A stretch of DNA of 63,529 nt, from contig JAUYOW010000078.1 of NCBI GenBank assembly GCA_030697825.1, forward strand, positions 1 through 63,529. Reading direction: 5' to 3'. This document shows positions 27,372 to 41,432 of the stretch, piece by piece (the stretch's first letter is position 1; the number at the start of each line of letters is the position of its first letter). The stretch is from Gemmatimonadales bacterium (lineage in GTDB: Bacteria > Gemmatimonadota > Gemmatimonadetes > Gemmatimonadales > JACORV01). The position numbers and the translations under genes are program-made. A model generated the notes under the pieces. The model was given only the letters and a program-made list of their open reading frames with translations. It did no database searches and was not told where the DNA came from.

Positions 27372-28685
27372 CTAGACCTCGTAGATCGCCTCGATCGGAT
27401 TGAACCGCGAGGCCCGCCGCGCCGGATACCAGCCGAACAGCAGCCCGACCACCACCGCGAAGAAGACCGACATCACCACGCCGGGCACGTTGATCGGGAT
27501 CGTGAAGTGCCGCCCGAACTGCTGCGCGATCTGCTGGGTGACGAAGATGAGGCCCGCGCCTCCCGCGATGCCGACCAGCGCGCCGCTCGCCGCCAACGTG
27601 AGCGCCTCGGCCAGGAACAACGCCTTGATCTCCTCGTCGTCCGCGCCCAGCGCCTTGCGGATGCCGATCTCGCGCACCCGCTCGCGCACCGAGATCAGCA
27701 GCACGCTGAAGAGCCCTATGCCGCCCACGATCATCGTCACGCCTGCGATGGCGAATAGCACGCCGTTCCACCCCTTCAGGACGTTGTCCGCCAGCGCGAG
27801 GTTCTCGGCCACCTCGGCGGCGTCGTTCTGAAGGTTGAAGTCCTCGACGCCGTGCCGCTGCCGGAGCGCCGCGCGCCCCGACTGCATGGTGCTCGGGAAG
27901 TCCGCATCCGCCGCGACGGTGACGGTCACGCTCCCCACCCGGCCCTCGCCCATCTGATAGCGGCTGAGGTACGTGTAGGGGATGTAGATCCGCCGGGCCG
28001 TGAAGCTGAAATCGACCGGGATGAACTCGAGGGGGAGCGGCGCGTTGACACCCACCACCGTGAACCGCACGGCGTCGATCGTGAGGGTACGGCCGACGGG
28101 GTCCGCGCTGCCGAAGAGGTCCTCGACGAGCGCCGAGCCGACCACGGCGACGCGCGAGCGCCCGATGATGTCGAGCGGCACGAGGGTGCGGCCCTGGATG
28201 ACGGGCCAGTGCCGCTGTTCGAGGTACCCAGCGTCCACGCCGCGGACCTGGAGGCGCCGCTGGCCGAGTGGCGTGGCAACTATCATGTCCTGGCCGGCGA
28301 CGTTGCCGTACACCGACTCGACCCCCGGCACGCGGCGCAGCGCCTCGAGGTCGGCGGCTTTGAGGCCGGGATGCATGAGGTCGGCGGCGCGGCGGCTGTC
28401 GCTGCGCGGGCTCCCGTCGTACAACGAGAAGCTCCTCGGCAGGCCCATTCGCCGAAGCTCGTCGTAGGCCATCGTCTTCACCGCGGCGGCGAGCGACGTC
28501 ATCGCCACGACGGACGCGCACCCGAATACGATACCGGAGAGGGTGAGGACCGAGCGCACCTTGTGCGCGCCGATCTCGCGGAAGGCGTCGCGTGCCAGCT
28601 CCCACGTCGCATCGAGCGCGCCCGCGAGTCGGCCCCGGCGCCCGGCCGCGGCGGTCTCCACCGGCCAAGCCGCCGGCTCAGCCAT
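27372..28685 (-). CDS. ABC transporter permease (MacB/FtsX-like)
   Basis: An N-terminal TM, a large periplasmic domain, and a C-terminal FtsX-type 3-TM bundle (IGIRKALGA). Confidence 0.8.
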   Translation of the reverse strand: MAEPAAWPVETAAAGRRGRLAGALDATWELARDAFREIGAHKVRSVLTLSGIVFGCASVVAMTSLAAAVKTMAYDELRRMGLPRSFSLYDGSPRSDSRRAADLMHPGLKAADLEALRRVPGVESVYGNVAGQDMIVATPLGQRRLQVRGVDAGYLEQRHWPVIQGRTLVPLDIIGRSRVAVVGSALVEDLFGSADPVGRTLTIDAVRFTVVGVNAPLPLEFIPVDFSFTARRIYIPYTYLSRYQMGEGRVGSVTVTVAADADFPSTMQSGRAALRQRHGVEDFNLQNDAAEVAENLALADNVLKGWNGVLFAIAGVTMIVGGIGLFSVLLISVRERVREIGIRKALGADDEEIKALFLAEALTLAASGALVGIAGGAGLIFVTQQIAQQFGRHFTIPINVPGVVMSVFFAVVVGLLFGWYPARRASRFNPIEAIYEV

Positions 28686-29904
28686 AGCGCAGTGCCTCGA
28701 CCGGCGAGAGCCTCGCCGCCTGGATCGCGGGGAAAGTGCCGGCGACGAGGCCGGTGGCGAGCGCCGTCGCGAGCGCGAGGCCGGCGACGAAGGGGCTCAC
28801 CACGGCCGGCACCTGCATGAAGTGCGCGACCAGTCCGGTGAGCGCGGTGCCGAGGCCGAGGCCGGCGAGGCCGCCCAGCACCGCCACGACCACCACCTGC
28901 GCGAGCACGTGCGCGAAGATGCCGACTCCCGTGGCGCCCAGCGCCATGCGGGTGCCGAACTCGCGCACCCGCTCCACGACGGAGGCGAGCAGGATGTTCG
29001 CGATCACGATGCCGCCGGTGAAGAGCGACACCGCGCCTACCACCAGGAAGATGAAGTTGATGAGCATCAGGAACTGGGTGTTGTCGCCGCCGGCGCCCTG
29101 GCCGGAGGGCTGAAGCTCGAAGTCCTCCACGCCGTGGCGCATCGCAAGCAGGGTGCGCACTTCCGCCTCCGCGACCCTGGCGCCGTCCTGCGGCCGCGCC
29201 TTCAGCGTCATGAAGTCGAGGCGGTCGTTACCCGACAGGTTGGCGATCCCGGTGGTGATGGGGATGTAAGCGCGGCGGTTGCGGTACTCGAGCGCGTTAT
29301 CCTCCCAGACCGCGAACTTGAACTCCTCGCGCTCCATCACGCCCACCACCACGTAGTTCTTCCCGCCGATGTTGACGAGCTGGTTGAGGGCACGCTCGGG
29401 GTCCCCGAACAGCGAGTCCGCGTACTTCCAGCCCAGCACCGCGACCCGTGCCCGCCGACGGACGTCCAGATCGCCGAGGAAGCGGCCCACCAGCGGCCGG
29501 ATGTCGTTGATGAAGGCGTAGTCCGGCACCGTGCCGATCACTTCGCCGTCGAAGCTGACGCCGCCCGCGCGGTAGGGCAGCTCGTGGCTCCAGCCGGGGC
29601 TCACCGCGAGGAGCGTGTGGGCGCGGTCCTTCAGCATCTGGGCGTCGCGGTAGGTGAGGCGGTCGGAGCGGAGCTCGCGCGCGGTTGGCGTGATCGCCAT
29701 GTCGCGGTTGCGCGCGATGATCGTCCCGGCGCCGCCCACTTCGTTGAGGAACTGGGTGGTGAGCGCCGTCTGCCCGCCGAACAGCGCCAGCACCGTGACG
29801 ATGCTCGCGGTGCCGAGAATGAGGCCCAGCAGCGAGAGGACGGTCTGGCCCCAATGCCGCCGCGCTTCGTCGAGACCGGTGAGCAGCGCCTCCGCGAAAG
29901 TCAC
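28678..29904 (-). CDS. ABC transporter permease (MacB/FtsX-like)
   Basis: Same architecture as the neighbouring permease. Contains EFGTRMALGA. Confidence 0.8.
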   Translation of the reverse strand: MTFAEALLTGLDEARRHWGQTVLSLLGLILGTASIVTVLALFGGQTALTTQFLNEVGGAGTIIARNRDMAITPTARELRSDRLTYRDAQMLKDRAHTLLAVSPGWSHELPYRAGGVSFDGEVIGTVPDYAFINDIRPLVGRFLGDLDVRRRARVAVLGWKYADSLFGDPERALNQLVNIGGKNYVVVGVMEREEFKFAVWEDNALEYRNRRAYIPITTGIANLSGNDRLDFMTLKARPQDGARVAEAEVRTLLAMRHGVEDFELQPSGQGAGGDNTQFLMLINFIFLVVGAVSLFTGGIVIANILLASVVERVREFGTRMALGATGVGIFAHVLAQVVVVAVLGGLAGLGLGTALTGLVAHFMQVPAVVSPFVAGLALATALATGLVAGTFPAIQAARLSPVEALRYG

Positions 29905-30569
29905 ACTACGCGACCGTCGGAGATGTGGATGGTGCGGTGCGCCTCGGCGGCGACCTTGGAGTCGTGGGTGACGAGAAGGATGGTGTGGCCCGCCTCGTGC
30001 AACTCGCGAAAGGTCTTCATCACCTCGGCGCCGGACTGCGAGTCCAGGTTGCCGGTGGGTTCGTCGGCCATGAGGATGGCCGGCTCGCCGACCAGCGCGC
30101 GCGCGATCGCCACCCGCTGCCGCTCCCCACCCGACAGCTCGTCCGGACGGTGATCCATCCGGTCGCCCATGCCGAGCCGCGCGAGGATGGCGCGCGCCCG
30201 GGACTTCCGCTCCGCGCGAGGGATCCCGCCGCGATACTGGAGCGGGAGCGCGACGTTCTCGAGCACGTTGAGCCGCGGCATCAGGTTGAAGGTCTGGAAG
30301 ACGAAGCCGACCTTCCTGTTCCGCACGTGCGCCAGCGTCTTGCCCCGGAGGCGGCTCACGTCCTGTCCGTCCAGCTCGTAGCTGCCGGCCGTGGGCGTGT
30401 CCAGGCAGCCGAGTATGTGCATGAGGGTGCTCTTGCCGGAGCCGGAAGGGCCGGTGATCGCGACGAACTCGCCCGCCTCGATGTCGCAGTCGGCGCCCCG
30501 CAGCGCCGGCACGTCAACCCGGCCCAGGCGGTAGGTCTTCTCCAGGCCGTTCGCGTGTATAAGTGGCAC
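29901..30569 (-). CDS. ABC transporter ATP-binding protein (MacB/LolD-type)
   Basis: GPSGSGKST (Walker A), LSGGERQRVAIARAL (signature), and ILMADEPTGNLD (Walker B). Confidence 0.9.
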   Translation of the reverse strand: MPLIHANGLEKTYRLGRVDVPALRGADCDIEAGEFVAITGPSGSGKSTLMHILGCLDTPTAGSYELDGQDVSRLRGKTLAHVRNRKVGFVFQTFNLMPRLNVLENVALPLQYRGGIPRAERKSRARAILARLGMGDRMDHRPDELSGGERQRVAIARALVGEPAILMADEPTGNLDSQSGAEVMKTFRELHEAGHTILLVTHDSKVAAEAHRTIHISDGRVV

Positions 30570-31687
30570 TACGACGTCCGCCGCACGCTCTTGGCCCGGT
30601 CGGCCGCCGCGACCGGGTCCTCGAGGGCCACCGAGTCGCCCGGCGCGATGCCTGGTCCGGTGATCTCGACGTGCGCGATGTCGGAAAGGCCGAGCGTGAC
30701 GGGAGTCGCGTGCGCCTCACCGCCCGAGACCTTGAAGACGACCGGCTTTCCTTCCTGGTAGATGATTGCCTCGACCGGGACGCGCACCACGTTCCGCCGC
30801 GTCGGGCCGGCGATGCGCACGTTGGCGGTCATGCCGGGGCGCAGCACGCTCTGGCGTCCACGCACCTCGACCTCGACGTCGAAGACCCGCACGCGGTCCT
30901 GCTGGCGCGCCGCGGGTGGGACGAGCCGCACGACGCCCTCGACCGTGTCGTCGGGGAAGGCGTCCACGTTGAGCTGCACGCGCTCACCACGCGCCACCTT
31001 TCCGATGTCAACTTCATTCACCGCCGCCTTCACGATCAGCACCGAGAGGTCGCCGATGGTGAACATCTCGGTACCGCCGCCGAAGGCGCTGGTGCCGCCC
31101 ACGACGGTTTCGCCCTCTTCGACGCCGCGCAGGATCACCACGCCGGCGGCGGGCGCGCGGATCGAAGCGAGCTGCGACGAATCGTTAGCGACCACGCCGC
31201 TCTCTTCCACGAGCCGGAGCTGGTTCTGTACGCGGTGCAGGGTGTTCTCAGCCTGCTCGATCGCCGCTCGTTTTTCCTCGATCTGCTGCTGGGTGATCAT
31301 CGTGCCGACGGTGAGCCCTTGCGCGCGGTCGTAGTCGCGACGGGCGTTGTCCCGCGCGATGCGGGCGGAAGTGACGTCACTCCGCATCTGGGCGAGCTGG
31401 TTGGCCTGCGCGATGTCGGGAACGACGGTGGCGAGGAGTTGGCCCGCGCGAACCACGTCTCCCTCGCCCACCAGCAGCCGGCGCACGATCCCGGAGATCG
31501 GCGACTTGACGACGATCTGGCGGTCGGGCTCGACCACACCGGTTTCCTCAATGGTTACGTGGATGTCGCCACGGTCGGCGAAGCCGACCTTGAAGGGGTA
31601 GGGCGAGTCACCGCCCTCGCCGCTAGCCTTGGAGCATGCGGCGAGGGCCAGCAGCGGCAGGAGGGCGAGCATCGGGTGATGGCGCAT
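30569..31687 (-). CDS. efflux periplasmic adaptor (HlyD/MFP family) lipoprotein
   Basis: Uses the internal start MRHHPMLALLPLLALAAC (lipobox). It has a coiled-coil plus beta-barrel MFP pattern. Confidence 0.8.
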   Translation of the reverse strand: MRHHPMLALLPLLALAACSKASGEGGDSPYPFKVGFADRGDIHVTIEETGVVEPDRQIVVKSPISGIVRRLLVGEGDVVRAGQLLATVVPDIAQANQLAQMRSDVTSARIARDNARRDYDRAQGLTVGTMITQQQIEEKRAAIEQAENTLHRVQNQLRLVEESGVVANDSSQLASIRAPAAGVVILRGVEEGETVVGGTSAFGGGTEMFTIGDLSVLIVKAAVNEVDIGKVARGERVQLNVDAFPDDTVEGVVRLVPPAARQQDRVRVFDVEVEVRGRQSVLRPGMTANVRIAGPTRRNVVRVPVEAIIYQEGKPVVFKVSGGEAHATPVTLGLSDIAHVEITGPGIAPGDSVALEDPVAAADRAKSVRRTS

Positions 31688-31864
31688 CGATTCTACCTTT
31701 GCAATCCATTGGGCAGCATGGAGTTGGCCGGGGTTCAAATGCCCTACGGCCACCGCCGACGTTAGGATTCAGACCGGCCCAGCGCGGCCGTCTAACACCG
31801 GGCATCCCAGCAGCGTATACTAGTGGTCAGGTCCGCATTTCGCCTTTTACCGGAGAGGGTAACG

Positions 31865-32452
31865 ATGCAGCGACGCTCTTCCGTGCTCTTTGCCGCCATC
31901 GGCCTCGCGGCCTCCGCCTCGGCCGCTCGCGCCCAGGCGGCTCCAGCGGCCCAGGCCACGCCCCCGCTCGAGATCGGCGCGGTGGCGCCGGACTTCGCGC
32001 TGCCCGGCGCGACCCGTTTCGGGGTCCTGCAGGACCCGATCCGCCTCAGCGACTTTCGGGGGAAGACCGTGGTCCTGGCGTTCTACTTCCGATCGCGAAC
32101 GCGTGGCTGAACCGTTCAAATGAACGCGTACCGTGATCAGTACGCGCAGCTATTCAGGGACGGCCGTAACGTGGTGCTCATCGCCATTAGCGCGGACCCC
32201 GATACGATGCAGGCGGCGTGGGCACGGGAGAGCGAGTTCCCGTTCCTCTTCGCGAGTGATTCGGGCGCGGTGGTGGGGCGTGCGTACGGCGCGCTGGCCT
32301 CGCGGCCGACCATGACGAACCGGAATCTCTTCGTGGTGGGGCCGGATGGCAGGATCGCGTACCGGGCGGTGCCGTTCCGGGAGGTGGATCCGACGGCGTA
32401 CACCGAGCTGGGGCAGGCGATCGATAGGACTGTGCCGGCGGCAGGGAACTGA
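31865..32452 (+). CDS. periplasmic PrxQ/BCP-like peroxiredoxin with in-frame TGA (32108-32110) at the peroxidatic Cys position; candidate selenoprotein (or nonsense pseudogene)
   Basis: ORFs 31823-32110 and 32120-32452 are in the same frame, separated only by TGA plus three sense codons. The joined sequence reads ...GKTVVLAFYFRSRTRG[TGA]TVQMNAYRDQY..., matching the Prx motif T-x-G-C-T-x-Q-x-x-x-x-R-D. The signal peptide is MQRRSSVLFAAIGLAASASAARAQ. Confidence 0.6.
32125..32146 (+). promoter_or_regulatory. candidate bacterial SECIS hairpin
   Basis: The 7-bp stem CGCGTAC / GTACGCG with loop CGTGATCA starts 14 nt after the TGA. The loop begins 21 nt after the TGA and has G in its second position. 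A lower helix TGAA / TTCA is possible. Confidence 0.4.
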
Positions 32453-32483
32453 GAAACGGTTGAGGAAAGAGAAGCGTTGAAGG

Positions 32484-33014
32484 TCAACGCCTTTCCCCCA
32501 CCGCCCTCCGCACTGCCGCCTCGATATCCTGGTCCGGACCGACCCCGGTGTACACCACGCGTCCCCGAGCGTCCAGCGCCACCACGTAGGACGTCGCCGG
32601 GGCCTCGAACGCGCGCACCGCGCTCCCGGTGGCATCGAAGAAGAACCGGAATGGCATCCGGTGGGTCTCGAGGTGACGGCGCATCGTGTTCCGCGTCTGG
32701 TTGACGCCCACTCCCACCACGACGAAATCCACGCGCCGGCCATACCGCTGATATGCGGCCTCCATCTTCGGCAACAGTGCCCGGCAGTTCGTGCACCAGG
32801 TCGCCCAGAACTCGACCAGCACGGGACGGCGCCCCACGAACGCCGAGAAATCCGCCGCCTGCCCGTCCAGGTCCTCGACTTGCACGGCCGGCGGCGTCGC
32901 GCCGAGGGCGATGCCGATCACTTCGTCCTGCGCGGCGAGTACGCGAGGGCAGGTAAGGGCGGTCGCGGTCGCGAGCGCGGCTAGCGCGAGCGTGGTCTGG
33001 AGGGTCCTACTCAC
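32484..33014 (-). CDS. TlpA/ResA-like periplasmic thiol:disulfide oxidoreductase
   Basis: VLVEFWATWCTNCRALLP is a WCxxC redoxin motif. The GTG start at 33014 overlaps the ccdA stop (GTGA). It has an N-terminal signal/anchor. Confidence 0.75.
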   Translation of the reverse strand: MSRTLQTTLALAALATATALTCPRVLAAQDEVIGIALGATPPAVQVEDLDGQAADFSAFVGRRPVLVEFWATWCTNCRALLPKMEAAYQRYGRRVDFVVVGVGVNQTRNTMRRHLETHRMPFRFFFDATGSAVRAFEAPATSYVVALDARGRVVYTGVGPDQDIEAAVRRAVGERR

Positions 33015-33730
33015 AGGACAGTTCCCATCTGTATGAAGTAGTACTCGGCCATACCGAGCAAGACGAGTCCCGCCGCTCGTTTGATCCACAGCATCCATCG
33101 GCCGGAGCGTGGCAGCGCGGCGAGCGTTCCCGACGAGAGGCCCACTACGATCAGCAGCGCCGTCATGCCCAGCGAGAACACGAAGAGGTAGATGAAGCCG
33201 AGCGCCGCGCTCTTCGTCGAGGCGACCCAGGTGAGCACCGCGGCGAACGCCGGAGCACCGCACGGCGCGGCCACGATGCCTGATGTCGCGCCGAGGAGGA
33301 AGACCGCGGGATACGAACCTCCGCCGAGGCTTCTAGCCCAGGCCACGAGCCGCTGAGGCGCGGAGACAGGGATGACGTCGAGCATGGCAAGCGCGAAGAG
33401 GAGTAGAAGGTTCCCGGTTGCGAAGCGCACCCAGGGATTCGACCCGATGGTGCCGAACAGCGAGCCGGTGAGCCCGGCCAGCAGCCCGAGCAGCGCGTAG
33501 AAGAGCGCGAGGCCGCAGGCGTACGTAAGCGTGAGGCCGATGGTCCTCGCCCGTGATGCGTTCTGGCGGGCGCTGCCGGCCAGGAGCCCGGCGGTGATGG
33601 GGATCATCGGATAGACGCACGGGGTGAGGCTCGTGACGAGGCCCGCGCCGAACAGCGCCGCCGCCGCCGTCAGGGGACGGTGGTGGAGGGACTCCGAAAG
33701 GCCCTGCAGCGTGGCGAGGATCGCGGGCAT
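33011..33730 (-). CDS. ccdA: cytochrome c biogenesis / DsbD-family transmembrane electron transporter (CcdA-like)
   Basis: Six TM segments, with the two conserved Cys in LTPCVYPMIP and VAAPCGAPAF. Confidence 0.8.
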   Translation of the reverse strand: MPAILATLQGLSESLHHRPLTAAAALFGAGLVTSLTPCVYPMIPITAGLLAGSARQNASRARTIGLTLTYACGLALFYALLGLLAGLTGSLFGTIGSNPWVRFATGNLLLLFALAMLDVIPVSAPQRLVAWARSLGGGSYPAVFLLGATSGIVAAPCGAPAFAAVLTWVASTKSAALGFIYLFVFSLGMTALLIVVGLSSGTLAALPRSGRWMLWIKRAAGLVLLGMAEYYFIQMGTVL

Positions 33731-33787: not shown

Positions 33788-34960
33788 TCAGAACGCCATC
33801 GTCAGCGCCGAGCCGAACTCGAAATGCGCATCCGGGCTCCAGCCGAAGTCCAACCCGAACAGCGAACCCTTGGATAGCTGGAAGCGGAAGCCGGCGCCGT
33901 AACCGGTGTGCAGGCCGTTCGTCTCGAAGCGCTCATCGTGGCTCCACACCCGCCCGACGTCCGCGAATGCCAGTAGCCACAGCCGGAACGGCGAGCTGGC
34001 GAAGGCGCCGTCCCAGTACTTGTAACGGAGATCCACGCTCGCGAGCGCCTTGTTCTCGCCGATCCAGCGCCCCGGCAGGTTGGAGCGCAGCGTCGTGGGG
34101 CCTCCGAAGCCGTCGTCCGGCCGCCAGGCGGTCAGTCGCTCGTAGGCGATGTAGAAGGGGAGACGGTCGTCCGACAGCTCGAGCGACTGGCGGAGCCCGA
34201 GCGTGGTCCGCAGCCCCAGGGGGATGAACTCGCGGGCGCCGAAGGCGTAGCGAGTGTAGTCGAAGTCGCCCGAGCCCTTGAGGCCGCGCACCGCGAGTGC
34301 TTCGACCAAGACCCCCCGCGACGGCGTCGCTTCTTCGTCCCGCGTGTCGAAGAAGAGGCCGCCGCGCAGCTCTGCGCTGGTGGACGATCCCGTGTCGCTC
34401 GTGAACCCCGTGTCGATCGTGTCGCCGAGGGCGGTGGGAAGTCCGTCCAGCGTCCTTGCCGCGTAGTGGCGCCACTGGCCGCCGACCTGAAGGTGCAGCG
34501 GTCCGGCGATGCGCCGGCGTATGGCGAGGAGTCCGGTGGTGCGCACCAGGGAATAGCGGTAGTAGTGAGAGACGCCGCCGTTCGCCGCTTCCAGCGAATC
34601 GTCCACCTCGGTCGCGTTCCCGATCCCGTAGAACGGCGCGCGTCGTCCGCGCTGCGCGCCGCCCATGGCGAGGAACCGCCAGCCCGGCCAGTGCCCCGAG
34701 TAGTCGAGCGTGAGCTGGATGCCGCGGGTGCCGCTGGTCGAGATCCACGCGGTGGGCTCGATCGAGATGCCGACGGGGATCGGGCCCGGCGGAGGCGCCT
34801 TCCGCCACCCGCCGGTGATGCTCACCATGAGCCCCTCGAGCGAGCTGTAGGTGGGCACGGGGAAGAGGTAGAAAACCCACGGCTCGGACCGCTGCTGCGC
34901 GCGTCCGAGCCGGGGCGCAAGAATGAGCAGGGCGGCGAGCGCCGCGGCCGTTCGATTCAG
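33788..34960 (-). CDS. Omp85/BamA-family outer-membrane beta-barrel protein (surface-antigen D15 domain)
   Basis: C-terminal ...GYGAGFRFQLSKGSLFGLDFGW...ALTMAF ending in Phe. The signal peptide is LNRTAAALAALLILAPRLGRAQQ. No ATG/GTG/TTG start precedes the signal peptide, so the upstream part of the listed 645-aa ORF is an antisense artefact over the asparaginase gene. Confidence 0.6.
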   Translation of the reverse strand: MNRTAAALAALLILAPRLGRAQQRSEPWVFYLFPVPTYSSLEGLMVSITGGWRKAPPPGPIPVGISIEPTAWISTSGTRGIQLTLDYSGHWPGWRFLAMGGAQRGRRAPFYGIGNATEVDDSLEAANGGVSHYYRYSLVRTTGLLAIRRRIAGPLHLQVGGQWRHYAARTLDGLPTALGDTIDTGFTSDTGSSTSAELRGGLFFDTRDEEATPSRGVLVEALAVRGLKGSGDFDYTRYAFGAREFIPLGLRTTLGLRQSLELSDDRLPFYIAYERLTAWRPDDGFGGPTTLRSNLPGRWIGENKALASVDLRYKYWDGAFASSPFRLWLLAFADVGRVWSHDERFETNGLHTGYGAGFRFQLSKGSLFGLDFGWSPDAHFEFGSALTMAF

Positions 34961-36042
34961 CGTGGCGCAGGCGTGTCGTAGAGGTAGGCGGAGTCCACCA
35001 GCCGCGCCTCGCGGCCGTCGTGCACGGCGAAACGGCTGGGGTAGGCCGTGGCCGCCTCGCCCACGCGGCTGGGGTAGAGCGAGGCCGCCCCGAACTCGCC
35101 GCGCTTGTTCAGGGCGTAGAAGTTGAGTTGGAACTTGGGGCGGCCGCGGGGATCGAGCAGGCGCGGCTCCGTCGTCGCGACCACCCGTCGCAGCGTCTCG
35201 AGGCAGGCGTCCGTGGGCGTGAGGCCGCGCCGCATCCCCTCGACCGTCAGGAAGCCGCCGCACACCTTGATGTTCGACTCGCCGCGGCCGGTGGAGCCCG
35301 CCGCGCCCACGTCGTTGTCGGTGTACTGCCCGGCGCCGATGATCGGTGAGTCGCCCACGCGCCCCGGGATCTTCCACGCCAGCCCGCTCGTCGTCGTCAC
35401 CGACGAGATCTCGCCGCGCGCGTTCACCACGGCGCAGTTGATCGTCCCAGTGGGCGGACGAACGAACGTCTCGCCGCGCTCGACATCCAGGAAATTGTCG
35501 TTGGGATTGAGGTTGGCGCGCCAGCGGAGCCACGCCTGGCGGGACGCATCCGTGAGCAGGTTCTCGACTTGGAAGCCGAACGACACCGCGAACCGCTGTG
35601 CCCCCTCGCCCACCAGGAAGATGTGGTTGGTGTAGCGCAGCACCAGTTTCGCCACTTCGCTCGGCGTCTTGATCCCCTCGAGGCAGCCCACCGCGCCGGC
35701 CCGCTTGGTCGGGCCGTGCATGCACGAAGCGTCGAGCTGCACGACGCCATCCGCGTTGGGCAGGCCGCCGTAACCGACCGAGTTGTCGTTCGGGTCCAGC
35801 TCCTGGATCTTCACGGCCTCGACCACGGCGTCCAGCGTGTCCACGCCCTGGTTGAGCAGCTCCATCGCGCGCGCGACGCCCCTGATGCCGTTCGCCGAGG
35901 CGACGACGCAGGGCCGCGAGCCCTGCCGGAGGACGACGGAGGGGGCCGGGAACCCCGGGGCCTTCGCCGCGGCCTTGCCCGCGAGCGGCAGGGTGGCGGC
36001 GCCGGCCAGCAGGAAGTCCCGACGAGACAGCTGATCCATCAC
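34957..36042 (-). CDS. Ntn-hydrolase asparaginase (isoaspartyl peptidase / glycosylasparaginase-like) with Tat signal
   Basis: The N-terminus is MMDQLSRRDFLLAGAA (twin-arginine motif). GTINCAVV is the autoprocessing Thr region. GAAGSTGRGE is also present. Confidence 0.75.
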   Translation of the reverse strand: MMDQLSRRDFLLAGAATLPLAGKAAAKAPGFPAPSVVLRQGSRPCVVASANGIRGVARAMELLNQGVDTLDAVVEAVKIQELDPNDNSVGYGGLPNADGVVQLDASCMHGPTKRAGAVGCLEGIKTPSEVAKLVLRYTNHIFLVGEGAQRFAVSFGFQVENLLTDASRQAWLRWRANLNPNDNFLDVERGETFVRPPTGTINCAVVNARGEISSVTTTSGLAWKIPGRVGDSPIIGAGQYTDNDVGAAGSTGRGESNIKVCGGFLTVEGMRRGLTPTDACLETLRRVVATTEPRLLDPRGRPKFQLNFYALNKRGEFGAASLYPSRVGEAATAYPSRFAVHDGREARLVDSAYLYDTPAPR

Positions 36043-37056: not shown

Positions 37057-38619
37057 ATGCTGGAAACGTTGGACCTCGACAAGAGAATCGAAAAAGACTC
37101 CTACGACAAGTCGTTCAAGGAGCTGCGCGACAAGCTCCGCGACCTCCAACAGGAGACCTTCGACGCGAAGATCCCAGTCGCCGTGCTGTTCGAGGGCTGG
37201 GACGCGGCCGGCAAGGGCGACTGCATCGAGAAGCTGGTGGGCCGGCTCGACCCGCGCGGCTACAAGGTTCACCCCATCTACGAGCCGCTGCCGGAAGAGC
37301 GGCTGCGTCCCTTCCTGTGGCGCTTCTGGACCAAGATACCAGGGCGCGGGGAGATGGCGATCTTCGACCGCTCCTGGTACGGCCGGGTGATGGTCGAGCG
37401 GGTGGACGGAATAGTGACGAAGCAGCAGTGGCAGTCAGCCTACAACGAGATCGCGCAGTTCGAGCGCATGCTCACCGACGACGGGTCGGTGATCGTCAAG
37501 TTCTGGCTGCAGATCAGCGAGAAGGAGCAGCGGAAGCGGTTCGAGAAGATCGAGAAGAGCAAGTACGACGCGTGGCGGGTGACGAAGCAGGACTGGGCGA
37601 CGCACCAGAGGTACGACGAGTACCTGGGGGCCGCCGAGGAGATGCTCGAGCGCACCAGCACGGCCTACGCGCCGTGGACCATCGTCGAGGCGCACGACAA
37701 GTACTACCGCCGCATCAAGATCTTCAAGACGCTGGCCGACGCGATGCAGTCCGCGCTCAACGCCAAGGCGGGAGCGGCGAAGCCCGTGCGGACCGCCCGG
37801 GCCAGTGTTTCCGTCCCGGCGCTCAAGGAGATGGAGACGGTCCTCGACCGCGTGGACCTGAAGAAGGCGCTCTCCGAGAAGAAATTCGAGGAAGAGCTGG
37901 AGAAGTACTCGGTGCGGCTGCGCGCGCTGGAGTTCAAGTGCTTCGAGGAGCGCATGCCGGTGGTGATCGCCTACGAGGGCTGGGACGCCGGGGGCAAGGG
38001 CGGCAACATCCGGCGGGTCATCGGCTCGCTCGATCCGCGCGGGTACAGCGTGATCCCCATCGCGGCGCCCAAGGGTGATGAGGCGACGCACCACTACCTG
38101 TGGCGCTTCTGGCGGCAGATCCCGAAGGCCGGCCACCTCGCCATCTACGACCGCACCTGGTACGGGCGTGTCCTGGTGGAGCGGGTCGAGGGCTTCTGCG
38201 CTGAGGCGGAGTGGCGCCGCGCCTATCAGGAGATCAAGGAGTTCGAGCTGTCGCTCGCCAACTTCGGCACGGTCATCGTGAAGTTCTGGCTGCACATCTC
38301 GAAGGAGGAGCAGCTCCGGCGCTTCAAGGAGCGCGAGAAGCTCGAGTACAAGCGCTTCAAGATCACCGAGGAGGACTGGCGCAACCGTGACAAGTGGGAC
38401 CTGTACCGGGCCGCCGTGGTCGACATGATCACCAACACCAGCACGACCTGGGCGCCCTGGACGATCGTCGAGGCGAACGACAAGTACTGGGCGCGCATCA
38501 AGGCGCTGCGGACCATCGTCGAGGCGATCGAGGAAGGCCTGAACCGGAACAAGGACGAGAAGAAGGGCAAGACCGGCAAGAACGGCAAGACCGGCAAGAA
38601 GAAGAAGAAGGACGCCTGA
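37057..38619 (+). CDS. ppk2: two-domain polyphosphate kinase 2 (polyP:AMP/ADP phosphotransferase type)
   Basis: Two PPK2 repeats (VLFEGWDAAGKG...FDRSWYGRV and IAYEGWDAGGKGG...YDRTWYGRV). It has a Lys-rich tail, KKGKTGKNGKTGKKKKKDA. Confidence 0.85.
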   Translation: MLETLDLDKRIEKDSYDKSFKELRDKLRDLQQETFDAKIPVAVLFEGWDAAGKGDCIEKLVGRLDPRGYKVHPIYEPLPEERLRPFLWRFWTKIPGRGEMAIFDRSWYGRVMVERVDGIVTKQQWQSAYNEIAQFERMLTDDGSVIVKFWLQISEKEQRKRFEKIEKSKYDAWRVTKQDWATHQRYDEYLGAAEEMLERTSTAYAPWTIVEAHDKYYRRIKIFKTLADAMQSALNAKAGAAKPVRTARASVSVPALKEMETVLDRVDLKKALSEKKFEEELEKYSVRLRALEFKCFEERMPVVIAYEGWDAGGKGGNIRRVIGSLDPRGYSVIPIAAPKGDEATHHYLWRFWRQIPKAGHLAIYDRTWYGRVLVERVEGFCAEAEWRRAYQEIKEFELSLANFGTVIVKFWLHISKEEQLRRFKEREKLEYKRFKITEEDWRNRDKWDLYRAAVVDMITNTSTTWAPWTIVEANDKYWARIKALRTIVEAIEEGLNRNKDEKKGKTGKNGKTGKKKKKDA

Positions 38620-41432
38620 TGGACCGCACGGGGCAGGTGCTCGTCAATCGCTACCGGCTCGTCCGCGAGCTGGGTTCCGGCGGGATGGGCACCGTGTACC
38701 TCGCGGAGCACGTGCACCTGGGGCGGTCAACCGCCGTCAAGCTGATGCACAAGGAGCTGACGCTGGAGCCCGATGCGGAGCAGCGCTTTCGCCGCGAGGC
38801 CCTCCTCGCCGCGAAGATCAGCCACTCCAGCGTCGCCCAGGTCTACGACTTCGACTGCACGCCGTACGGCGAGTTCCTGCTGGCGATGGAGTACGTCGAG
38901 GGGGAGACCGTAGCGCAGCGGCTCAAGACCTCGGGGCCGTTCCCGCTTGCCCTGGCTCTCCAGGTCCTGAAGGAGGTTGCCGAGGGGCTCGACGTGGCCC
39001 ACGGCCTCGGCATCCTCCACCGCGACATCAAGCCCGAGAACCTCATGCTCGCGGCGGGCGGCGTGGTGAAGCTGCTCGACTTCGGCGTGGCGCGCGCCTT
39101 CGAGACCACCAGCAGCATCACGTCGGCGGGCTTCGCGGTCGGCACGCCGGCGTACATGAGCCCGGAGCAGCTCATGGGCGAGCCGCTCGGCCCGGCGAGC
39201 GATCTCTACGCCCTCGGCACCGTCTTCTACGAGATGCTGACCGGCCAGCCCGCGCACTCGGGCAAGTCGTTCGCGGAGTTCCGCGCCAAGCGCATGAGCC
39301 AGCCACCGACGGCCCTGCACCTGCTCCGTCCGGAGATCCCCACCGCGCTCACTGAGGTCGTGGCGCGGGCGCTGGATCCGGAGCCCAGGGGACGATGGCC
39401 CTCCGCCACCGCGTTTGCGCGCGCCGCCGATGATGCGGTCAAGGCGGCCGCGCCGCCGGCGGTAGGCGCGTCGCCGCGCCGGAGCAGGGTCTCAGGCCAG
39501 CTCGACCGGTGGCAGTCGCACTTCGCGGCGCTCCGCTTCGCCGGCCGCGAGCGCGAGATGCGGATGGTGCGCGACGCGTGGGCCACCGCGCGCACCGGCC
39601 GGACCACGCTGCTCTGGATCGAGGGAGACGAAGGGGCCGGCAAGTCGTCGTTCTTCGAGCAGGCCGAACGCGAGGCCGCGGGCGACGAAGCAGCACAGGT
39701 CACCGGGCGCGGTTACGAAGCCGACGTCGTCCGCCCCTACGGACCGTGCCTGCCGATACTGCGGCGCGCGCTCCAGCTTCGCGCGGCCGAGGGGCGCACC
39801 TGGCCCGCCATCCTGGCCCTCGCCGATGCCAGGCTCGATACGCGCGCGCCGGACCGCGCGGTGCTCTACGACGAGGTGACGCTCCTGGTGCGCGGTGCGG
39901 CCGAGCGCGGGCCGGTGCTGATCGGCATGGAGGACCTCGACTGGTGCGACCCCGCCTCGATCTCGCTGTTCGAGTTCCTCGCGCACGACATCTCGGACGT
40001 GCCGCTACTTCTCGTGACCAGCAGCTCCGTGGGGCGCGGCACGTCGGAGGTGCGGGAGCGGATGCGACGGCTCGAGAACGTCATCTGGGTCACGCTCCGC
40101 CCGCTCGGCTACGAGGCTGTCGCCGCCTGGCTCTCCCGCGCGCTGGGCCGTGAGGCGCCCGAGGAATTGGTGCGCTTCGTCTACGGCCATACCGAGGGCA
40201 ACGCGTTCTTCATCGAGCAGGTGGTCAGATCGCTCATCGAGCGCGGCGACATGGACCGGGTCACCGACGAGCTGCGCGTGTCGTTCGCGGACGCTCCGCC
40301 GCCCGAGGCTGTCGCCGACGTCGTGCAGCGGCGGCTCAAGGGGATGTCCCCCGCGGCGCGGGAGATCCTCCAGATAGCGGCGGTAGTGGGTCGCGAGTTC
40401 GACGTTGACCTGCTCATCGAGCTCTCGACCCGGGCCGAGGACGCCGTCCTCGACGCCCTCGACGAGGCGGTCTTCGCCGGCGTGCTGTCGCCGCTCCAAC
40501 GCCCACAGGGCGACTGGTATCGGTTCACCCACAACAAGCTCGGGCAGGTCCTGGCGCAGGCGATGAACGCGCGGCGCCGGCGCAAGCTCCACGGCCAGAT
40601 CGCCGAAGCGCTGGCGCAGCATCCCGACTCCCCCGCCGGCGTCATGGCCTGGCACTGGTACCATGCCGGCGATTTCGCCCGCGCGTCCGTGGCGGCCCGC
40701 GTGGCGGCGCGCCACGCCCTCAACGTCCACGACTACGACGACGCGGTGACGTTCGCGGTGATGGCGGCCGAGACCGGCGAGACGGCGGAAGAGAAAGGCG
40801 AGGCGCACGAGCTGCGCGGCGACGCGCTGCGGCGCCTCGACCGTAACGGCGAGGCGGCGGCCGCGTACGCCCGCGCCCGCCTGGTGGGAGACGCGAGCCC
40901 CGAGGCCGCGACCAACCTCAGGCGAAAAGAACTGCGTTGCGCGCTGGTGGCCGGTACGGTGAGTCCGGTGGCCGCGGCGGCGGAGGCGAAGAAACTGGCC
41001 GAGAACGCGGGAGCGCTGCCGCCTCAGAAGCGCACGGCGGTGGAGATCGTCCTGGCCGAAGCGCTGGCCGCGGCGGGCGAAGTCCCGGAGGCGATCGAAG
41101 CCGCGAAGCGGGCGAAGGCCGCGGCGGAAGAGACGGGCGACCGGTTCCAGGTGGGTGAGGCCCTCCTGGCCCTCGGCCACGCCGAGCTGAAAGCGAGGAA
41201 CCTCGACGAGGCGGTCCGAGCCGCGCGCGAGGCGAGCGTCATCTTCGCCGAGGCTGCCGACCCCTACTCGTCGGCGCGCGCCGCGTCGCTGATCGGCCAG
41301 GTCGCGGCCGCCGCGAGTGACCTGCCCGCCGCGCGCGCCGCCTTCGACGACGCGCTCCGCCAGGCGGAGCGCGCCCACGTCACGCGGTTGGTCCGCCAGA
41401 TCAAGGAGAGGCAGGCCGAGCTGGAGGGGTAG
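38619..41432 (+). CDS. Ser/Thr protein kinase fused to AAA(16)-type ATPase and TPR-like repeats
   Basis: YRLVRELGSGGMGTVYLAEH, HRDIKPENLM and DFG kinase motifs, then the P-loop WIEGDEGAGKSSF, and a helical repeat C-terminus. Its ATG overlaps the ppk2 stop (TGATG). Confidence 0.85.
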   Translation: MDRTGQVLVNRYRLVRELGSGGMGTVYLAEHVHLGRSTAVKLMHKELTLEPDAEQRFRREALLAAKISHSSVAQVYDFDCTPYGEFLLAMEYVEGETVAQRLKTSGPFPLALALQVLKEVAEGLDVAHGLGILHRDIKPENLMLAAGGVVKLLDFGVARAFETTSSITSAGFAVGTPAYMSPEQLMGEPLGPASDLYALGTVFYEMLTGQPAHSGKSFAEFRAKRMSQPPTALHLLRPEIPTALTEVVARALDPEPRGRWPSATAFARAADDAVKAAAPPAVGASPRRSRVSGQLDRWQSHFAALRFAGREREMRMVRDAWATARTGRTTLLWIEGDEGAGKSSFFEQAEREAAGDEAAQVTGRGYEADVVRPYGPCLPILRRALQLRAAEGRTWPAILALADARLDTRAPDRAVLYDEVTLLVRGAAERGPVLIGMEDLDWCDPASISLFEFLAHDISDVPLLLVTSSSVGRGTSEVRERMRRLENVIWVTLRPLGYEAVAAWLSRALGREAPEELVRFVYGHTEGNAFFIEQVVRSLIERGDMDRVTDELRVSFADAPPPEAVADVVQRRLKGMSPAAREILQIAAVVGREFDVDLLIELSTRAEDAVLDALDEAVFAGVLSPLQRPQGDWYRFTHNKLGQVLAQAMNARRRRKLHGQIAEALAQHPDSPAGVMAWHWYHAGDFARASVAARVAARHALNVHDYDDAVTFAVMAAETGETAEEKGEAHELRGDALRRLDRNGEAAAAYARARLVGDASPEAATNLRRKELRCALVAGTVSPVAAAAEAKKLAENAGALPPQKRTAVEIVLAEALAAAGEVPEAIEAAKRAKAAAEETGDRFQVGEALLALGHAELKARNLDEAVRAAREASVIFAEAADPYSSARAASLIGQVAAAASDLPAARAAFDDALRQAERAHVTRLVRQIKERQAELEG

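Follow-up and report, generated by a model that had tools for sequence, protein, structure and literature searches.

The stretch analysed here, a window of 63,529 nt from a Gemmatimonadales bacterium (contig JAUYOW010000078.1; G+C content of approximately 69 %), harbours two open reading frames (ORFs) in the same frame, 31823-32110(+) and 32120-32452(+), with the TGA at 32108-32110 and three further codons making up the gap in the ORF list. Translation of 31865-32452(+) yields a single frame of 195 codons for which this TGA is the sole internal stop (...VVLAFYFRSRTRG, stop, TVQMNAYRDQYAQLF...; with a longer upstream stretch, ...GKTVVLAFYFRSRTRG, stop, TVQMNAYRDQYAQLF...), as had been recognised in a first-pass annotation of this DNA, which treated the two ORFs as one gene split by the TGA. 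The same annotation considered the locus a candidate selenoprotein, a reading that is strengthened by comparison with related loci, in which the TGA is conserved, both of its sides are under purifying selection and a hairpin downstream of it is conserved and covarying. We are highly confident that 31865-32452 encodes one peroxiredoxin, predicted to be exported and with approximately 172 mature residues, in which the UGA at codon 82 is translated as selenocysteine (Sec). The features of the gene are as follows, with homologues termed Sec forms or Cys forms according to whether they carry TGA or a Cys codon at this position.

31852-31859, + strand: Shine-Dalgarno-like sequence GGAGAGGG, 5 nt 5′ of the ATG at 31865, as read from the sequence
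31865-32452, + strand: complete peroxiredoxin gene of 195 codons including the putative Sec82 and ending in a separate stop, the TGA at 32450-32452
31865-31933, + strand: signal-peptide-like N-terminus MQRRSSVLFAAIGLAASASAARA, with cleavage predicted from the sequence after A-R-A (before Q)
32087-32089, + strand: Phe75 (TTC), at the place of the canonical active-site Pro of PxxxTxxC in the alignment to 2ywn and 3hjp
32099-32101, + strand: Thr79 of the TxxU motif, from alignment to solved peroxiredoxins
32108-32110, + strand: in-frame TGA, putative Sec codon 82 at the peroxidatic position, conserved as TGA and replaced by TGC in Cys homologues
32111-32124, + strand: A-rich 14-nt spacer from the UGA to the hairpin, in which codon +3 is CAA in 83/102 Sec forms and CAG in 8/9 Cys forms
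32125-32146, + strand: hairpin resembling a selenocysteine insertion sequence (SECIS), with a 7-bp stem (32125-32131/32140-32146) and an 8-nt loop, CGUGAUCA (32132-32139)
32321-32323, + strand: Arg153, the conserved peroxiredoxin active-site Arg (within NRNLFVV), from the 2ywn/3hjp alignment

With regard to family membership, profile searches were performed on the window product with the stop replaced by Cys. These return Pfam AhpC-TSA (PF00578) over residues 37-166 and profile positions 1-123 of 124 (E = 1.8e-25; 89.7 bits, above the gathering cutoff of 26) as well as Pfam Redoxin (E = 3e-17), and the full-length homologues found by protein search, at 187-217 amino acids, span both halves of the interrupted gene. 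A total of 57 peroxiredoxins in the PDB match the window protein, the best being the archaeal BCP types 2ywn and 3hjp and AhpE of M. tuberculosis (1xvw), with E-values of 5e-15 to 1e-10; with BCP and AhpE types as its closest solved relatives, the earlier designation of the protein as PrxQ/BCP-like is a reasonable one. The stop aligns with the peroxidatic Cys of 2ywn and 3hjp, with Thr at position -3 (T79-R-G-TGA82 corresponding to T-Q-V-C of 2ywn), exactly as the first-pass annotation had placed it, and Arg153 is invariant across 14 homologues. The mature window protein contains no Cys at all, and each of the 105 Cys-form proteins from the protein search has a single Cys in its mature part, which together point to a one-Cys or one-Sec peroxiredoxin family that would require an external reductant.

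Conservation of the TGA was assessed using two collection scans, one of species-representative genomes (32 loci) and one of metagenome contigs seeded with Cys-form proteins (80 more loci), the members of the family set being numbered L001-L114 (loci) and P0001-P0120 (proteins). TGA is present at the identical codon in 105 of the 108 family loci fetched by the two scans. This includes every one of L001-L026, which derive from 25 metagenome-assembled genomes (MAGs; two loci are contig ends of one MAG), 24 of them labelled Gemmatimonadota/Gemmatimonadales and one Acidobacteria, with the complete chromosome CP070812.1 amongst them; at the protein level, this set is about 50 % to 77 % identical to the window. 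In the metagenome scan, TGA was found at 78/80 loci and TGC at 2/80. The frame remains open for 106-130 codons past the TGA in all 106 loci examined, and the degradation of this part of the gene that the first-pass annotation had associated with a pseudogene is not seen. Both sides of the TGA are under purifying selection, with a ratio of nonsynonymous to synonymous substitution (dN/dS) of 0.20 over the 45 codons preceding it and of 0.27 past it, at a dS of about 0.9-1.0 (102 distinct Sec-form genes).

Some members of the family display local peculiarities around this position. In the complete chromosome CP070812.1 (L013:10199-10213), the codons AGA GGC CGT AAT TGA specify R-G-R-N-U, such that the Thr of TxxU is replaced by Gly and the Gly before Sec by Asn, and the hairpin and remaining gene are intact despite the altered motif. 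The MAG labelled Acidobacteria gp6 (L014, QHWJ01000199.1) contains a typical Gemmatimonadales-type Sec-peroxiredoxin gene with TlpA/CcdA neighbours, and may represent a binning error or horizontal transfer. At codon -4 (window 32096-32098), Arg is specified by the rare CGA in 60/102 Sec-form genes, and residue -6 is mostly Lys (AAG/AAA) in Sec forms and Arg (CGC/CGG/AGA/AGG) in Cys forms; these biases may reflect an upstream context effect on UGA decoding.

The hairpin had been noted from the window sequence as a 7-bp structure at 32125-32146 with a spacing that fits bacterial SECIS (bSECIS) elements, and this description holds. It consists of CGCGUAC-CGUGAUCA-GUACGCG, with the stem beginning 14 nt and the loop 21 nt past the TGA, and has a predicted energy of -9.4 kcal/mol alone and -10.5 kcal/mol with its flanks. 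The published bSECIS model specifies a loop of 3-9 nt, a stem of 4-16 bp, a G in the first two loop positions that is often followed by G or U, a UGA-loop distance of 16-37 nt and a minimum free energy (MFE) of no more than -7.5 kcal/mol (PMC13188914). The window hairpin fits this model throughout, with an 8-nt loop (C-G-U-G-A-U-C-A) in which G at position 2 is followed by U, a 7-bp stem, a spacing of 21 nt and an MFE of -9.4 to -10.5 kcal/mol. The six inner pairs and nearly all of the loop (GCGUAC-CGUGAUCA-GUACGC) are invariant across 83 distinct 60-nt sequences, and RNAalifold returns the same structure as the consensus fold. The closing pair covaries, being C-G in 51 sequences, U-A in 28, G-C in one and mismatched in three, with zero changes confined to a single side; both of its positions are third codon positions (of Asn/His and Ala). 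Synonymous variation is absent in Sec forms at the GCG, TAC, CAG and TAC codons (GCG and TAC being used in 102/102) and close to zero at CGT (99/102) and GAT (100/102), whereas 45-65 % of sequence pairs differ at four-fold codons in the rest of the gene. Judging by codon usage, the spacer ahead of the stem looks constrained as well.

Cys-form homologues provide the counterpart to this pattern. There are 106 Cys-form proteins aligned at the UGA position (105 from the protein search and one fetched locus), and TGC was confirmed on DNA in nine distinct genes (L049, L055, L117, L121, L122, L124, L125, L126 and L127). The alternation of TGA with TGC amongst orthologues, which the first-pass annotation had suggested looking for, is therefore present, together with a conserved downstream sequence. 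The Cys forms possess the same AYRDQY peptide as the Sec forms and encode it with other codons, CGT being used in 0/9, TAT in 4/9 and GAC in 6/9. Taken together, the synonymous invariance in Sec forms and the contrasting codons in Cys forms indicate that the constraint is one on the RNA and goes with the TGA. All seven hairpin pairs are kept in only one Cys form, L117 (L117:8241-8300; P0003), a TGC/Pro form that is 88 % identical to the Sec form L035 and retains the 7-bp stem in full, its loop differing by one change (CGT to CGC). This gene looks like a recent Sec-to-Cys conversion that carries a relic SECIS.

A number of observations weigh against decoding of the TGA as Sec in a working peroxiredoxin. 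A 71-nt single-sequence fold around the hairpin is no better than shuffled sequences (z = -0.82), and Rfam returns no match at gathering thresholds over the whole window or at E ≤ 10 over 31800-32500; the case that the hairpin is not due to chance comes from comparison with other loci (TGA in 105/108; invariance in 83 sequences) and not from the single fold. One family locus, L034 (protein P0001), has TTA (Leu) instead of TGA at 332-334, with an intact hairpin, on an 864-bp ENA contig of 1.6x coverage. At this G+C content TTA is very rarely used as a codon, and its presence stems either from a sequencing error or from a very recent loss of function. No selA, selB, selD or tRNA-Sec gene was found in the 63.5-kb window or in approximately 0.94 Mb of related loci, although linkage of these genes to a selenoprotein gene is not required and their absence is thus uninformative. 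Furthermore, 17 of the 58 Sec loci with enough flank have no TlpA/CcdA neighbours (see below), and the canonical active-site Pro is Phe75 in the window, so that canonical catalysis cannot be assumed.

L034 is one of several apparent exceptions at the Sec position, as P0001, P0002, P0005 and P0080 display Leu or Trp there at the protein level, with P0001 and P0002 checked on DNA. The idea that such variants mark the position as non-catalytic was rejected, as the P0001 and P0002 counter-examples dissolve on DNA. The Trp of P0002 (L033, Joint Genome Institute (JGI) gene Ga0633609_0330342) is a TGA that had been read with genetic code 4, in a call that also overran the true stop. P0005 likewise has Leu, and has no contig on record.

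The search for the Sec machinery employed ARAGORN for tRNA genes and tblastn of E. coli SelA, SelB and SelD against the window and the 0.94 Mb of related loci. ARAGORN returned zero tRNAs in the window and zero tRNA-Sec in any related locus. The only tblastn matches, SelB-like and located beside the peroxiredoxin gene in two Gemmatimonas MAGs (L021 and L022), were identified as CysN/CysNC sulfate adenylyltransferase and rejected. In these two loci (L021:10573-13950 and L022), a CysN/CysNC-like sulfate adenylyltransferase-APS kinase gene lies directly 3′ of the peroxiredoxin gene in place of the TlpA/CcdA pair and is followed, by eye, by a PAPS-reductase/CysD-like gene, such that sulfur/selenium activation genes adjoin the selenoprotein gene. 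At the level of the phylum, selA (K01042) and selD (K01008) are listed in 86 % of Gemmatimonadota MAGs in the source data of one study (PMC8938466); the supplements of Peng et al. 2016 contain no Gemmatimonadetes entry.

The alternative that survives best is that the UGA is recoded independently of Sec, either by a near-cognate or suppressor tRNA (Trp, Cys or Gly), perhaps with stimulation by the hairpin, or by insertion of Cys via the Sec pathway at low selenium. Downstream hairpins can stimulate read-through in general, and the evidence for the Sec machinery is at the level of the phylum. We nevertheless consider this explanation unlikely: the codon coincides precisely with the catalytic Cys and is exchanged for TGC in homologues, Trp or Gly at this site would kill the enzyme, the hairpin fits the bSECIS model in full, loop G-U included, TGA is otherwise a stop in these genes, and much of the phylum has selA and selD (PMC8938466).

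Still less probable is the production of two separate polypeptides, namely a secreted N-terminal peptide of 81 residues and a C-terminal redoxin fragment of 110 residues, cytoplasmic and initiated at ATG 32120. This ATG lies three codons past the TGA, and a product of 110-113 amino acids is called in many contigs. Such a split would, however, break one thioredoxin-fold domain in two at the active site, over which the Pfam match is continuous (residues 37-166). The ATG is also the codon of a conserved Met (that of TxQM) shared by Cys forms without a split, and the 9 nt between TGA and ATG contain no evident ribosome-binding site.

A recent nonsense mutation of Cys (TGC/TGT) to TGA, leaving a pseudogene, was the alternative put forward in the first-pass annotation. 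It would require a change of only one base from TGC, and gene callers and GenBank do treat the locus as truncated, with MEK6767502.1 comprising the C-terminal 110 amino acids only. Against this, the TGA is shared by 105/108 loci from at least 25 species with no other lesion in the gene, the dN/dS of 0.2-0.27 holds on both sides, a hairpin constrained at the nucleotide level follows, and a dS of approximately 0.9 demonstrates that the loci are not copies of a single contaminant; with the TGA conserved and the frame open across loci, the mutation can be set aside as extremely improbable. Equally remote is a genome-wide reassignment of TGA to sense (code 4 or code 25), as a JGI call that renders it as W (P0002) also overran a real terminal TGA, TGA ends 39 of 106 family genes (TAG 36, TAA 31) and 13 of the 24 long ORFs with high G+C at third codon positions in the window, and is thus still a stop, and a search of the window for further in-frame TGA codons flanked by coding signal gave four candidates, all of them ordinary gene ends (the filter is insensitive and missed the peroxiredoxin TGA too). 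The conserved TGA, the open frame, the dN/dS values and the stop codon usage together exclude pseudogene, sequencing error and codon reassignment as explanations of the family.

The replacement of the active-site Pro is a feature of the Sec forms as a whole. This Pro is described as "absolutely conserved" in PxxxTxxC (PMC3322552) and as "highly conserved" in the motif of Sec-peroxiredoxins (PMC13188914). In distinct Sec-form proteins the position is Phe in 76, Tyr in 21 and Pro in one (L025), whilst in Cys forms it is Pro in 106 and Tyr in one (P0031, with TGC confirmed on DNA), so that only two sequences amongst approximately 205 are discordant. Sec and Cys forms interleave on a crude neighbour-joining tree, built without the Sec/Cys and Pro columns, and Fitch parsimony gives approximately 10 switches between them. 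A change from Pro to Phe requires two nucleotide changes. Given this and the approximately 10 joint switches, the coupling of Sec with Phe/Tyr and of Cys with Pro looks selected, insofar as so rough a tree can be followed. More tentatively, and with rather less than even confidence, we suggest that the use of Sec is mechanistically coupled to the replacement of Pro by Phe or Tyr, and that the two states have switched together repeatedly. If so, [F/Y]xxxTxxU would mark a catalytic variant in its own right, with an active-site pocket of the different shape required by a selenolate that is larger and more reactive, and the family would constitute a natural experiment on why Sec is used rather than Cys. 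Despite the altered active-site signature, the peroxiredoxin-family homology of the window protein is in no doubt.

Beyond the gene itself, the surroundings of the window locus contain the following features.

31792-31821, + strand: weak promoter-like site CTAACA-18-TATACT from a consensus scan, 44 nt 5′ of the start codon
32472-32492, strand unassigned: terminator-like hairpin between the convergent peroxiredoxin and tlpA-like genes
32484-33008, - strand: TlpA/ResA-like thioredoxin-fold protein, probably exported, with a WCTNC motif and an uncertain start (Pfam Redoxin/Thioredoxin; NCBIfam ResA/TlpA-like)
33011-33730, - strand: CcdA/DsbD-type transmembrane electron transporter consisting of DsbD_TM only (Pfam DsbD_TM, E = 3.5e-46; NCBIfam DsbD)

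This context is conserved. The TlpA-like and DsbD_TM genes are adjacent to the peroxiredoxin gene in 41 of the 58 Sec loci with enough flank, and immediately convergent with it in 37 of those; the pair also adjoins the Cys-form loci L117, L122, L124 and L127. On the basis of gene neighbourhood, we propose that the TlpA-like protein and the DsbD-family transporter are functionally linked to the Sec-peroxiredoxin. Regarding export, the N-terminus of the window protein combines basic residues with a hydrophobic core and A-x-A. N-termini of this type are seen repeatedly across the family, and a crude hydropathy test, in which the choice of start codon is imperfect, is passed by 59 of the 87 distinct ones. 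The earlier description of the protein as secreted is thus reasonable, its N-terminus looking like a signal peptide, and the TlpA-like protein has a hydrophobic N-terminus of its own.

From these elements we infer a route by which the system may work. The hairpin at 32125-32146, acting as a bSECIS, would tether SelB-GTP-Sec-tRNA(Sec) whilst the ribosome stays on the UGA, leading to insertion of Sec rather than termination; at the terminal TGA of the gene, which is without such a hairpin, translation would stop. The N-terminal signal peptide would direct the product via the general secretory pathway to the periplasm. There, by the chemistry of the family, the Sec82 selenolate, activated by Thr79 and Arg153, would reduce H2O2 or organic hydroperoxides and be converted to a selenenic acid. 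As a "1-Sec" enzyme, it would draw on an external reductant, for which gene context makes the convergently encoded TlpA-like CxxC protein the likely candidate; this in turn would be re-reduced by the adjoining CcdA/DsbD-type membrane transporter with electrons from cytoplasmic thioredoxin. The signal-peptide-like N-terminus and the conserved TlpA-like and DsbD/CcdA neighbours thus point to a periplasmic 1-Sec peroxidase.

The window protein resembles the BCP/PrxQ and AhpE 1-Cys types (2ywn, 3hjp and 1xvw) in that Thr, the peroxidatic position and Arg all align, and differs from them in that these are cytoplasmic proteins with Cys and Pro, whereas it has Phe at the Pro position. AhpE, which gives its name to one of these subfamilies, is a one-Cys enzyme.

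The first-pass annotation pointed to precedents for Sec in this protein class, and rightly so. Sec-peroxiredoxins (COG1225/PF00578), whose motif is TxxU, form an established family of selenoproteins with experimental proof in Eubacterium acidaminophilum, as in the case of PrxU, and are abundant in marine metagenomes (PMC1088965, PMC9312934, PMC13188914). In common with these, the window family displays an AhpC/TSA fold, a putative Sec for the peroxidatic Cys in TxxU, a bSECIS-like hairpin just 3′ of it, and widespread Cys homologues. Unlike them, the window protein has a signal-peptide-like N-terminus and no second Cys or Sec, and in its family the Pro of PxxxTxxU is Phe or Tyr; with 55.7 bits against the cutoff of 270 for the PrxU equivalog NF040737, it is a distant relative only. 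The hosts also differ, being aerobic soil Gemmatimonadota for the window family and anaerobes or marine taxa for the known Sec-peroxiredoxins.

A further parallel is offered by Caulobacter crescentus, in which an envelope peroxide-reduction pathway running from ScsB to TlpA to PprX was shown experimentally (PMC3322552). Both systems combine a PrxQ/BCP-type peroxiredoxin that is exported (as predicted in the present case), a TlpA-like reductant and a DsbD-family transporter. PprX, however, possesses Cys, a resolving Cys and the canonical PxxxTxxC, all of which the window protein is without; the transporter is a minimal CcdA-type protein (DsbD_TM only) in the window versus ScsB in Caulobacter; and the three genes are clustered in the window, unlike in Caulobacter, with the window system known from genes alone. 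Very probably, then, the window gene is a Sec-peroxiredoxin of a kind already known, and a new, phylum-wide member with an unusual active-site substitution.

Other genes in the window were noted in passing. Divergent from the peroxiredoxin gene is a MacAB-type efflux cluster (27372-31753, - strand) with two MacB_PCD/FtsX permeases and an HlyD-family adaptor, and the Cys-form locus L117 likewise has MacB_PCD/FtsX genes in its vicinity. An Omp85-family outer-membrane protein is encoded just past ccdA (33788-35725, - strand), and 38394-41432 (+ strand) encodes a Ser/Thr protein kinase of 1012 amino acids fused to an AAA_16 ATPase domain.

The family is poorly represented in existing annotation. 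No NCBIfam model reaches its cutoff on the window protein, as a result of which GenBank annotates the last 110 amino acids only (MEK6767502.1), and the closest relatives found by protein search (91-100 % identical) appear only as fragments of 110-113 amino acids starting from the Met after the TGA. JGI calls give Trp for the TGA on high-GC Gemmatimonadota-like contigs (L033/P0002, checked on DNA, and P0080, at the protein level only), a call that is an annotation artefact masking a selenoprotein. Very probably, these loci belong to a family of predicted secreted selenoproteins that occurs widely in soil Gemmatimonadota and that gene callers routinely split or truncate. This near-universal selenoprotein of an abundant soil phylum would thus be undercounted in inventories of the selenoproteome and of antioxidant functions in soil metagenomes, for which the conserved hairpin provides a ready search pattern, as well as a candidate SelB-binding site for the phylum. 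The pairing of Sec with Phe/Tyr and of Cys with Pro offers a testable clue to how the peroxiredoxin active site adapts to selenium, and the presence of the family would imply that aerobic Gemmatimonadota require selenium to defend the periplasm against peroxides.

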